From Ascoidea asiatica JCM 7603 (Eukaryota; Fungi; Ascomycota): DNA of 52,199 nucleotides. The stretch is from assembly GCA_001600695.1 (NCBI GenBank), contig BCKQ01000001.1, positions 1,616,258 through 1,668,456 of the forward strand, given 5' to 3'. The position numbers were made by a program, and so were the translations under genes. The notes under the pieces were generated by a model that had not been told where the DNA came from, searched no databases, and saw only the letters and a list, made by a program, of their open reading frames with translations. Positions 6,625 to 34,220 of this stretch are shown here, in pieces; position 1 is the stretch's first letter; every line of letters begins with the position of its first letter.

Positions 6625-7127
6625 TTCCGATTTAAAATAGAATTTCAAAATGCATATATCCGAATGATGTTTATTATTATAAAATAAAATAAAATAAAAT
6701 AAAGTGAAATAATAAAGTTAGTTTATAGGGACTTTAAGATACTGTATATACAAATTGTATTTAATGTAAATTGAAAAGGTTAATAATTGATAATAAGCAT
6801 CAAAGATAAAAGATAAATAAAGTTAAGAATATTACCCCAGATTTCATCGGAAAATAATAAGAAATTTGCAGATTATTATTATATAATCGAGTATTATACA
6901 ATATTATATATAGACTATGTGATACATTTATTAGACTTACTATGAGAAAGCTTAAAAAAGTAGGGGTTTTTCAGTAAAAAAGGTGAAAAAAAGCTAGTTT
7001 TGAAGGTTTGCCATTTTTTAGTATTTGAGATGAGCAAAGCGAAATTTGAATTGTGGGGTTGAAGCTTACAAATCGAAGGGAAATCTCGGTTCGGGAGACA
7101 AGGCAAGCCAGAGAAGTGAGTGGTAAT

Positions 7128-7135
7128 GTCACGTG
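7128..7135 (+). promoter_or_regulatory. Cbf1-type site GTCACGTG in the GC-rich promoter island upstream of the bHLH gene
   Basis: Exact RTCACGTG match; a PAC-like GAGATGAGC lies at about 7027-7035 and TCACATG at about 7250. Confidence 0.45.
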
Positions 7136-7953
7136 TATATATATATTGTATTTGTGACTGTAGCCAGTGATAACAAGTAACAACCAGGAAAGACAGGCGC
7201 CCCGAGGACCGAGAGCCAAGCGTGAACTCTCGGAAGAGCCAGCGGAGCATCACATGCCAGCGCAAGAACACCGCGGTGGTGCCAGAGCCACGGAGCTCGC
7301 AACGGGAACGAGCGAGGAATGTGCTGTGTGCAGACCGTAGCAATACTGGCATTACTGGCAATAGTGAAGAGATATTAAGTAATGTAGAAGCGATGAAGTA
7401 ATGAAGTAATGTAATATCAAAGAAGTAACAAGTAATAGCTAACAGAAGTAGAAGTAGATAGATATACTGTCAGTTATAATAGTAAGTTACTGTTTTATTC
7501 TATTTCCAGTTTGTTGTCTTTATTCCCACAAAGCACCACCCCAAATATATTAACTCTTAGTCTCAGTCCTAGTCTTAGTCCCTTGACACTTTACAGTTTC
7601 TTTCCGTTCTAATTTGATTCATATCACTTGAATCACTCAAATCATTTCAATCATTCAAATCATCCATTTCTTCAAACCCAAACAAACTGAAAATATCAGA
7701 TATTTATGTTTATTCAGTAATCAATATATGTAAATATATAAAAAAAACTATTATAATAATATAATATAATACAATAATTATAATATAACAAGATAATATA
7801 AATATTCTCTTGTGCGCAAGTTCAAATTTTATTCTTTTATGTTTCTTATAAGATTATTTTAATTAAACCATTAAATTAAACCACCAACAATTTTAAATAT
7901 TTATCCGTTACTTAATATCAACAACCCTATACCCATCATATTAATAAAACAAC

Positions 7954-15418: not shown

Positions 15419-15508
15419 ATCACGTGTATATGTTGAGGGCTGTAAAATACTTTTTTCTCAGTCATTTTCAAATTTCTTCAAAGAGCCCTTGTATCCGTAC
15501 AACTAGGG
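15419..15508. promoter_or_regulatory. EBP2/RPL17 divergent promoter with Cbf1, Tbf1-like and Rap1-like motifs
   Basis: ATCACGTG 15419-15426, GAGGGCT 15435-15441, AGCCCT 15484-15489, TCCGTACA 15494-15501, TAGGG 15504-15508. Confidence 0.5.
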
Positions 15509-15648
15509 AAATTTTCTGGTGGAAACTTTTGCTTACTTTTCAAAAACTAATATTTGGAAAATGAAAATATTAAATTAAAAGAATCTAAAAACTAAGTAGT
15601 AACAAAGTAAAGAAGTAGTAAAAAAAAAAAAAATTATAGAATATCAAA

Positions 15649-16400
15649 ATGACTCGTTACGGTGCAGTTCCATCAAATCCAGCTCGTTCAGCAGCTGCCA
15701 GAGGTGCTTATATTCGTGCTTCTTTTAAAAATACCAGAGAAACAGCTCAAGCTGTTAATGGATGGCCATTAGAAAAAGCTCAAAAATACTTAAAACAAGT
15801 TTCTAATCATGAAAGAGCTATTCCATTCCGTCGTTACAATTCTTCAATTGGTAGAACTGCTCAAGGTAAAGAATTTGGTGTTACCAAAGCAAGATGGCCT
15901 GTTAAATCTGTCAAATTCATTCAAGATTTATTAACCAATGCTGAATCAAATGCTGATGTATGTATACGAGTACCTCTACTTAATAATTAATAATTTGTGG
16001 ATTTAGGAATTTTTGTTTTAATGGAACCTCTTTTTCTAAAATATCATATCTTGTTAATTAATGACGGGAAGCATTTTTTTCTCTTATTCTCACGATGAAA
16101 CAACTATCAAAGCTTAACTACAATTTACTAACAATTTTTTTTTTTTTAAAATAGGCCAAAGGATTAGATACCACAAAATTATACATTTCTCACATTCAAG
16201 TAAATCAAGGACCAAAACAACATCGTCGTACTTTCCGTGCTCATGGTAGAATTAATAAATATGATTCTTCTACTTGTCACATTGAAATAATTTTAACTGA
16301 AAAAGAAGAAGAAATCGAAAAAGCTCCAGAAAAGGCTGTGGCTAGATTATCATCTCGTCAAAGAGGTAGATTAGCTGCTCAAAAACGTCTTACTGCTTAG
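15649..16400 (+). CDS. RPL17: 60S ribosomal protein L17 (uL22); exons 15649-15957 and 16155-16400, 184 aa
   Basis: Exon 1 contains [10 protein letters not shown] and ARWPVKS; after splicing the frame continues [36 protein letters not shown] to TAG at 16398-16400. Confidence 0.97.
15958..16154 (+). other. Spliceosomal intron of RPL17 (197 nt, phase 0)
   Basis: GTATGT donor at 15958, TACTAAC at 16126-16132, T-tract, TAG acceptor ending 16154; splicing restores the frame. Confidence 0.95.
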
Positions 16401-32460: not shown

Positions 32461-33082
32461 TTTTGTTATATTATTATTATTATTATTATTATTATTTTGT
32501 TGATTATATCATTTAGAAGTATTCAAGTAATTCATTCGAACAATGAAGAAGTATGAGATAAGATGAAGTATTCAAGAAAAAGAATAAGAATTGAAGTAAG
32601 TAAGAATCAGTCAATTCATCAAGTGGTAGTTGAATATATTGTTTTGGTAATCGATTACATGAATCTATTCAACATATTACTCATTAATCATTAATCATTA
32701 AACCAATATATACAAATATAAACAAATATGAAAGTAAACAAGGATTAATATATTCAATTGACCTCTCTTTGTTTTATTGGTTTCTTAAGCACAACTCAAG
32801 TGAAAAGAAAGAAACAGTTAGGGCTCTAAACATGGATATTACACAGAACGATAATAAATATCAAATATTACACTTCAAGAAACATACATATAATACTATA
32901 GAACATAGATATGACATATGACAGTAATATAAATATAAATTCAAATTAAGAGATGATAATAAGAATGTATCATTTAAATCATAGGAATTAATTAATCACT
33001 TTTAAATCAAAAGATTAAAGGTTTAATAAATTCAACTAATTTGACTAAATGAAATTAATCTAAGAAACAGGAACGAAATATA

Positions 33083-33236
33083 AACTGTGGCATTATTGTT
33101 GGTAATGTCAGTTAATATTCAACTAATTAAGCTTGGTTTTATAAAGCTAACATTTACCCAGAATGGGAAATGAAGGCTTTAATTTGTTTCTATGAATAAA
33201 TTATACTATTAGTACAACCTACTGAATGATGAAGAA
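33083..33236 (-). ncRNA. Candidate box H/ACA snoRNA
   Basis: Hairpin 33222-33196, A-rich hinge with ANANNA matches, hairpin about 33172-33091, ACA at 33088-33086 plus 3 nt; upstream TATA/RRPE/PAC/Tbf1-like motifs. Folded by eye only. Confidence 0.45.
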
Positions 33237-33287
33237 AAAAAAAGGGAAGGAAAAAAGAAAAAAACAAGAAGAAGAGAAATTGAAGTG

Positions 33288-33384
33288 CTTTTATAGTGAA
33301 AAGTTTCACCAGAAGAAATCACTGCAAAAGCATTAAATGAAAAATAAAGGCGAAAAATAAAAGATGAGAAATAAAAAGTAGGGC
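33288..33384 (-). promoter_or_regulatory. Ribosome-biogenesis/snoRNA-type promoter
   Basis: TATAAAAG (minus, 33295-33288), RRPE-like TGAAAAGTTT 33297-33306, PAC core GATGAG 33363-33368, TAGGGC 33379-33384. Confidence 0.5.
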
Positions 33385-33454
33385 TGGAACGGACCCGAGA
33401 AAGTGGTCTCGTTTTACTCTGTTTAAGAGCCCTGGTTTTGTAACTTTGAAATAC

Positions 33455-34117
33455 TTAAAAAACATTTGTGCATCTTTTGACGAACTGAAAAACCCCAGCG
33501 AGCACAATTGTTATCTTCAAAACCAAGTCGAATATTTGAGAAGAGTAGTGGATAAAGAAACAAATGAAATAAGTTGAACCAATGACCCAATAAATCATCA
33601 ACACTCCAGCTATCACTAATCTTAAAAGCCATGAATGATTCTGTAAAAAAGAAAAATAATTTATCACCATTTCACCAATTTCATCCATTAAACCACAAGA
33701 ATTAGAAACATAATTAATATCTATTCCACCGTATGAAAACAATGTAGTTAATAATTCTGAATCAATAATCAATGGTATACAATAACCAAAACATGATTTA
33801 TTAGATTTATTTTTATTATTATTATTATTAAAACCTATGATATAGTTTATCAAATCTAAGATTATACTTCCATATGACAAACCTATCCAACTCACACTAC
33901 AACTAAATGATATTGCAAATATTATATATCCAATTACTCCTTTATGATATTTCAAAAATGCATGCACTCTATAATAAATATCACGATTTCTGAAAATAAC
34001 TAAAACTCTTTGTCGAATGTATTTTTCAATATAATGGTGTATATTTAAAATTACATTTCCAAGTTCTTCAGCTTCTATATTTTCTATGTCTTCAAAATAT
34101 TCGTTCTGATTATTCAT
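33455..34117 (-). CDS. Multi-pass membrane protein, possibly a divergent Asi2-like inner nuclear membrane protein
   Basis: 220-aa ORF from MNNQNEY (an upstream ATG at 34156 lies in an ATGTT repeat); 2-3 hydrophobic helices; recalled similarity to the Asi2 C-terminal half is weak. Confidence 0.6.
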   Translation of the reverse strand: MNNQNEYFEDIENIEAEELGNVILNIHHYIEKYIRQRVLVIFRNRDIYYRVHAFLKYHKGVIGYIIFAISFSCSVSWIGLSYGSIILDLINYIIGFNNNNNKNKSNKSCFGYCIPLIIDSELLTTLFSYGGIDINYVSNSCGLMDEIGEMVINYFSFLQNHSWLLRLVIAGVLMIYWVIGSTYFICFFIHYSSQIFDLVLKITIVLAGVFQFVKRCTNVF

Positions 34118-34220
34118 ATTATATTTCCAATATATATAGTACACATAACATAACATAACATATTTTTCACAAGTTTCTACAAGTAATGGGAACTATCCCT
34201 TTTTTATATCATTTCATTTC

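Follow-up and report, generated by a model that had tools for sequence, protein, structure and literature searches.

Does the ORF-free DNA between a KTR-like gene and an orphan reading frame of Ascoidea asiatica encode an RNA and, if so, which one? We analyzed a window of 52,199 nucleotides (the whole stretch of DNA under study; 25% GC). From their translations and Pfam matches we take its genes to be, in order, PAN1-, TIM17-, RPB4- and KTR-like, an orphan ORF, then EFM4-, V-ATPase H-, YRB2- and SAM-like. The closest RPB4 is that of Ascoidea rubescens (67% identity). The initial annotation had placed at this locus a 154-nt minus-strand H/ACA RNA ending at 33083, with a 3' pocket for U839 of 18S rRNA. 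Our analysis points to this yeast's snR37 gene, with a predicted RNA of 268 nt that would guide pseudouridylation of the 25S uridine equal to S. cerevisiae U2944 in the usual numbering (position 2942 in the modification table used below). We give this reading a probability of about 0.93. Because of the snR37 match and the predicted 25S target, the locus probably carries a known gene in an ordinary, shorter-than-usual copy, rather than a new 18S guide.

The ORF-free gap measures 994 bp. The long ORF-free stretch that had been pointed out is thus present, but four other gaps of this window exceed 1 kb, so that a length near 1 kb is nothing unusual here. Next to it lies a 233-codon ORF with hydrophobic stretches (33455-34156, minus strand), at the position of a UTP30-like gene in three of four syntenic yeasts. 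It has no significant Pfam match, and no relatives were found in two protein searches or in the Atlas. It is probably a real orphan gene, because the remaining five frames carry 14-30 stops.

Fold and parts of the predicted RNA

The fold was extended past 33083, i.e. from 33230 to 32963 of the minus strand. Its MFE and centroid structures coincide (-55.7 kcal/mol, z -4.97, 0 of 200 shuffles), and among 104 non-coding tiles of 268 nt the tile over most of this segment ranks second by fold. The top-ranked tile is 6893-7160 (plus strand), also non-coding (z -4.25, 0 of 200 shuffles). It adjoins a GC-rich stretch at about 7160-7350, intron-like signals occur at 7482-7566 (plus) and from 6940 (minus), and Rfam at the gathering threshold gave no match for it.

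The predicted RNA consists of a leader hairpin, a guide domain, AGAUUA, a 3' hairpin and ACA-UUC; in the guide domain the side hairpin and an upper stem of 16 bp are closed by a 7-bp lower stem. Its parts are as follows.

32963..33230, minus strand: snR37-type box H/ACA snoRNA, predicted 268 nt (fold and Rfam; 3' end placed at ACA+3)
33195..33223, minus strand: 5' leader hairpin, 13 bp, without a pocket (pair probabilities 0.63-1.0; aligns with the Rfam snR37 model at its first hairpin)
33185..33191, minus strand: 5' strand of the lower stem, AGAAACA, pairing with 33069-33063 (7 bp, probabilities 0.83-0.99; same helix in the Rfam model)
33142..33181, minus strand: side hairpin within the 5' strand of the pocket (probabilities 0.65-1.0; its counterpart in the Rfam model is a longer arm)
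33121..33126, minus strand: left guide arm UUAGUU (6 pairs, 3 of them G-U, to 25S bases 3' of the predicted target; model consensus UAGCU)
33076..33120, minus strand: upper stem within the guide domain (16 bp; probabilities 0.87-1.0 in its core)
33102-33096, minus strand: apical loop CCAACAA of the upper stem (aligns to the AACAA loop of the snR37 model)
33069..33075, minus strand: right guide arm CGUUCC(U) (6 Watson-Crick pairs and 1 G-U to 25S bases 5' of the predicted target; starts 14 nt before box H)
33056..33061, minus strand: box H AGAUUA (ANANNA with G at position 2; one base past the lower stem; aligns to AGAUcA of the model)
32970..33052, minus strand: 3' hairpin, without a convincing target (fold)
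32966..32968, minus strand: predicted box ACA, then UUC (one base past the 3' hairpin, unpaired at 0.99-1.0; the model ends ACAuUU, the Rfam alignment ends earlier)

The first hairpin of the initial annotation is borne out (33223-33195, 13 bp, z -4.9 on its own). The region described as its hinge is instead the 5' strand of the lower stem. A second hairpin ending in ACA-GUU is not favored: the best-case model that contains it reaches -12.4 vs -28.0 kcal/mol, a cost of 15.6, and the upper stem that it needs has a pair probability of 4e-5. The ACA proposed as its box (33088-33086) lies inside the upper stem, where C33087 and A33086 are paired at 0.99-1.0. Even when 33236-33083 is folded freely, CCAACAA forms a 7-nt loop and this ACA is within a stem. 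The pocket UUCUGGG/CCAACAA is thereby lost, its right strand being the apical loop and its left strand sitting in the side hairpin. The length of 154 nt and the 3' end at 33083 give way to a predicted 268 nt, from 33230 to 32963. A stand-alone minus-strand box H/ACA gene starting near 33230 is nevertheless what fold, Rfam match and promoter together predict, as had been proposed.

The hairpin-hinge-hairpin-tail fold is present in 33230-32963, with a 3' hairpin that is weak when folded by itself (z of only -1.3 to -1.75). Taken alone this hairpin gave no snR37 match in Rfam and no good rRNA fit in a pocket scan against fungal rRNA (L032 and L034, see below). The 3' third of the RNA is therefore drawn from class rules, because the 3' hairpin of the model is skipped in the alignment and that of the candidate has neither an snR37 match nor a significant fold; this hairpin and the predicted 3' end are less certain than the rest. 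In the unconstrained fold 33225-33230 pair with 32969-32974, just before the ACA box, and hide box H. This pairing, which is better than the open form by 2.8 kcal/mol, is in competition with the lower stem of the 3' hairpin.

According to the available part of Canzler 2018 (PMC5824354), 90% of fungal H/ACA RNAs measure 148-266 nt and about 80% carry G at position 2 of box H. We also looked for a box C/D signature (RUGAUGA and CUGA, 70-130 nt apart). By sequence reading the minus strand has no box C, and the plus-strand AUGAUGA at 33227 is followed by no CUGA until 33485.

Family match and predicted 25S target

Rfam was run on 311 bases (32940-33250), a segment chosen to test the snR37 prediction already drawn from the fold and the pocket. 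It returned snR37 (RF01267) with 42.6 bits (E 9.1e-10, bias 14.2), which falls short of the gathering score, 47. By our own arithmetic the E-value becomes about 1.5e-7 once the whole window is counted, and the next-best family on the same segment has an E-value of 2.5 or worse. The Rfam check suggested at the outset gave this match in the narrow run, whereas three wider runs (gathering threshold; E-value on 1.1 kb and on 9.6 kb) gave nothing relevant. The absence of snR37 from these is probably due to speed filters. The result adds an unannotated, predicted snR37 orthologue that default Rfam scans miss.

The alignment covers 33230-33047, with 33230 at model position 1 and 114 model positions skipped. 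It superposes the leader hairpin, the lower stem, the side arm, the upper stem with its AACAA loop, the right arm and box H. The candidate shares with S. cerevisiae snR37 the 5' end AUCAU, the leader hairpin, the lower stem AGAAAC/GUUUCU, a side arm in the pocket, the upper stem with its AACAA loop, the right arm CGUUCC, the box H AGAU.A and the same predicted 25S target. Disparities nevertheless appear. The candidate measures about 268 nt vs 385 positions in the model, its side arm is far shorter, and its 3' hairpin (about 83 nt) cannot be aligned to that of snR37. The right arm has one base fewer; the left arm, UUAGUU vs UAGCU, has one extra G-U. A text search found no mention of snR37 in the accessible portions of PMC5824354, PMC6984369, PMC12095548 and PMC7601244.

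For pocket fits we used rRNA of other fungi, i.e. the 18S and 5.8S of L032 and the 25S of L034; L034 carries tandem rDNA units, the large subunit of which contains a group I intron. A scanner written for this analysis was run against the 1262 uridines of these rRNAs. The pocket located 14 nt before box H forms 7+6 pairs (9 Watson-Crick, 4 G-U) around uridine 688 in the second 25S piece of L034. The snR10 site lies 21 nt before this uridine and the snR42 site 31 nt after it, a spacing that identifies the uridine as position 2942, guide snR37, in Taoka's table (Taoka 2016). It is modified at 58% in S. cerevisiae and at 98% in S. pombe.

The scan counts 6739 H/ACA-like boxes in the window; only 4 of them fit the 25S site of snR37, and the candidate has the most stable upper stem among them; one other box (16812, within an ORF) also reaches 13 pairs. 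In the free fold the right arm is unpaired (33075-33070, 0.71-1.0), while box H and four left-arm bases are paired, the left arm partly with 33133-33130. Opening box H costs about 2.8 kcal/mol, and holding both arms and both boxes open gives -51.0 vs -55.7 kcal/mol, a cost of 4.7. A 25S site at position 1425 of the L034 segment scored slightly better (-10.9 vs -10.3); it was rejected, the base there being C in both of the two other LSU copies. The identities snR42 and snR30 were rejected as well, their geometry failing, and a middle hairpin with an AUA box was considered and dropped.

We take vertebrate 28S-4491 to be the equivalent of the snR37 large-subunit site. The available part of PMC6984369 gives SNORA10 and SNORA63 as the H/ACA guides for 28S-4491. 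These RNAs carry second targets, none of which is seen in the candidate, and no sequence match between them and it was found.

As is established for the H/ACA class, Cbf5, Nop10, Nhp2 and Gar1 would be expected to assemble on box H and box ACA. By computation, UUAGUU and CGUUCC(U) would then be presented around the target uridine, 14 nt from box H, by the 5' domain with its lower stem, side hairpin and upper stem. The RNA would thus modify one 25S uridine in the peptidyl-transferase region, while the 3' hairpin would have no recognisable target.

Candidate promoter and neighboring loci

Upstream of the predicted 5' end the following elements were found.

33380..33433, no strand assigned: inverted pair AGGGCT-N42-AGCCCT, Tbf1-like sites (factor named by resemblance; second copy at 15436-15489 before RPL17, with identical spacing)
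33363..33368, plus strand: PAC-like GATGAG core (14 copies in the window, weak alone)
33297..33313, minus strand: TCTGGTG-AAACTTTT(CA) element including an RRPE-like site (common to the RPL17 promoter, 15515-15530)
33231..33295, minus strand: TATA box (33295-33288) and pyrimidine tract running to the predicted 5' end (sequence)

All the promoter motifs listed in the initial annotation are where it put them. TATAAAAG (33295-33288) and the pyrimidine tract are on the minus strand, as it had read them, but TAGGGC (33379), GATGAG (33363) and TGAAAAGTTT (33297) are on the plus strand.

Two of these elements recur in the window. AGGGCT-N42-AGCCCT has 2 matches in the window and 0 in 100 shuffles, the pattern having been defined after both promoters were seen. 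TCTGGTG(G)AAACTTTT, also a post hoc pattern, has 2 matches in the same orientation relative to the gene and 0 in 100 shuffles. A cluster of Tbf1-like, RRPE and TATA sites arises in 0.2% of 2000 shuffles of the non-coding DNA of the window, with distances set post hoc. In each case the second copy is in the divergent RPL17/EBP2 promoter (15436-15530, plus strand), which has CACGTG in addition and no PAC core. The two elements in common with RPL17 therefore suggest that transcription points down the minus strand. Binding of Tbf1 at snoRNA promoters, with consensus ARCCCTAA, is described in the accessible parts of PMC5416754 and bioRxiv 10.1101/420794. The DNA in front of the predicted snoRNA gene thus reads as a promoter of the ribosomal-protein class, from which RNA polymerase II would drive a stand-alone transcript.

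An imperfect inverted repeat at 33287-33333 encloses the RRPE-like site and the TATA box (80-nt windows, z -3.2 to -4.4). The minus-strand hairpin 33373-33441 was considered as a 25S guide and rejected: it offers 10 pairs on one side only, then ACU, it has no Rfam match, and its stem is the inverted promoter pair.

The same elements could belong to ordinary intergenic DNA, i.e. to the terminator of the orphan ORF and regulatory DNA of the KTR-family gene, or to the left-over promoter of a lost UTP30-like gene. The gap is of ordinary size for the window, TAGGGC and AACTGTGG occur before KTR in one of four syntenic yeast loci (L060, 12001-12271), and in three of the four KTR follows a Ribosomal_L1 (UTP30-like) gene. 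But a KTR promoter is unlikely because 17 ATGs intervene between the TATA box and the KTR start, and KTR has its own AGCCCTAA (32818-32825), 364 bp before its start. A decayed UTP30 was looked for at the locus and no remnant was found. Above all, intergenic DNA leaves the snR37 match and the fold unexplained, so that we consider this explanation most unlikely.

Conservation, named at the outset as a check, was not borne out at the loci sampled. A metagenome scan with an RPB4 alignment yielded 39 RPB4-linked loci. They contain neither an snR37 core pattern nor a blastn match to the RNA better than chance would give (best E 0.049); Rfam gave no match in the 9 of them on which it was run, and no homologue was found in viral contigs. 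In L060, L061/L062, L067 and L068 RPB4 lies next to KTR; three of these four also have a UTP30-like gene before KTR. The absence of an RNA homologue from these RPB4-KTR loci therefore indicates that synteny of the gene does not extend to these distant yeasts.

snR37 has a scaffolding role in early 60S assembly. On the reading of the locus as an snR37 gene, a tentative proposal, which we hold as possible and no better, is that the 268-nt RNA is intermediate between the 385-position form of Saccharomycetaceae and shorter fungal forms; the leader hairpin and the trimmed side arm would then mark the minimal extensions for scaffolding. By the same proposal AGGGCT-N42-AGCCCT, arranged as at a ribosomal protein gene, would point to one shared Tbf1-type regulon that takes in both the snoRNA and the ribosomal protein genes of this lineage. 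A compact snR37 could help to define which extensions matter beyond guiding, and the promoter shared with RPL17 could serve as a search pattern for further snoRNA and ribosomal protein genes in the lineage.

The proposed 18S pocket and a possible intron

Could the RNA nevertheless guide modification of 18S, as the 154-nt form ending at 33083 or as an alternative fold? The 18S sequence on which this proposal was built is real fungal rDNA: the 21-base pattern used as a query occurs at 36 loci. These (L022-L057) are 36 bacterial genome records with eukaryotic, mostly fungal-type rDNA, probably contamination. The numbering is also correct, GGU being 837-839, and the placement in rm2 agrees with U836-U841 in the available part of PMC2664660. 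One can draw the 7+7 pairs 14 nt away from the ACA, and 8+6 pairs at 15 nt for U840, but the pairing is at chance level and needs a fold about 16 kcal/mol above the MFE. In the scan against the fungal rRNA uridines, 85 of 1302 ACAs in the window do as well by pair count, 53 of these 85 being inside ORFs; by energy, 99 of 1304 do. The candidate ranks 34th of 46 non-ORF pocket matches in refolding cost. Thus a two-arm rRNA match arises easily by chance, at about one ACA in 15, and U839 is not supported as a target. Moreover, the snR37 model conserves the helices and the loop into which both arms and the ACA fall. The letters around this ACA align to conserved stem positions of that model, so that the Met31/32 site offered as another explanation of the ACA is not needed.

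The U840 register corresponds to human 18S pseudouridine 897 (23% modified), for which the accessible parts of PMC6182160 and PMC9941101 propose SNORA44 as guide. This human RNA would be the functional counterpart if the U840-register pocket were real, but the pocket is unsupported and has no Rfam match. In yeasts, the modifications listed in the available part of PMC5062969 include none between 796 and 974 of S. cerevisiae 18S, and those in the available part of PMC4605285 none at the equivalent 854/855 of S. pombe. We hold the 18S reading to be even less probable than that of intergenic DNA. The suggestion of a guide absent from S. cerevisiae lapses with it, since the predicted RNA has its orthologue in S. 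cerevisiae snR37 and its target in 25S.

The stretch in question, rm2, is one that snR30/U17 pairs with, together with rm1 (PMC2664660, available part). The candidate appears unrelated to snR30/U17: it is without the m2 motif 7 nt before an ACA and has no Rfam match to it. About the snR30 binding site in 18S the locus raises nothing new.

As improbable as the 18S pocket is a spliceosomal intron of 138 nt (GTAGGT 33222, TATTAAC 33117, CAG 33085) in a non-coding transcript or a leader: the three signals are in order and such a set is given by 1.4% of 5000 local shuffles, but window-wide 4 such sets are observed vs 2.3 expected, and splicing would remove most of the snR37-matching domain, the signal letters of which align to conserved model positions. 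The two clear introns of the window use GTATGT and TACTAAC, with TAG at the 3' end; they are those of RPL17 (15958-16154, plus strand) and of the V-ATPase subunit H gene (37232-37117, minus strand).
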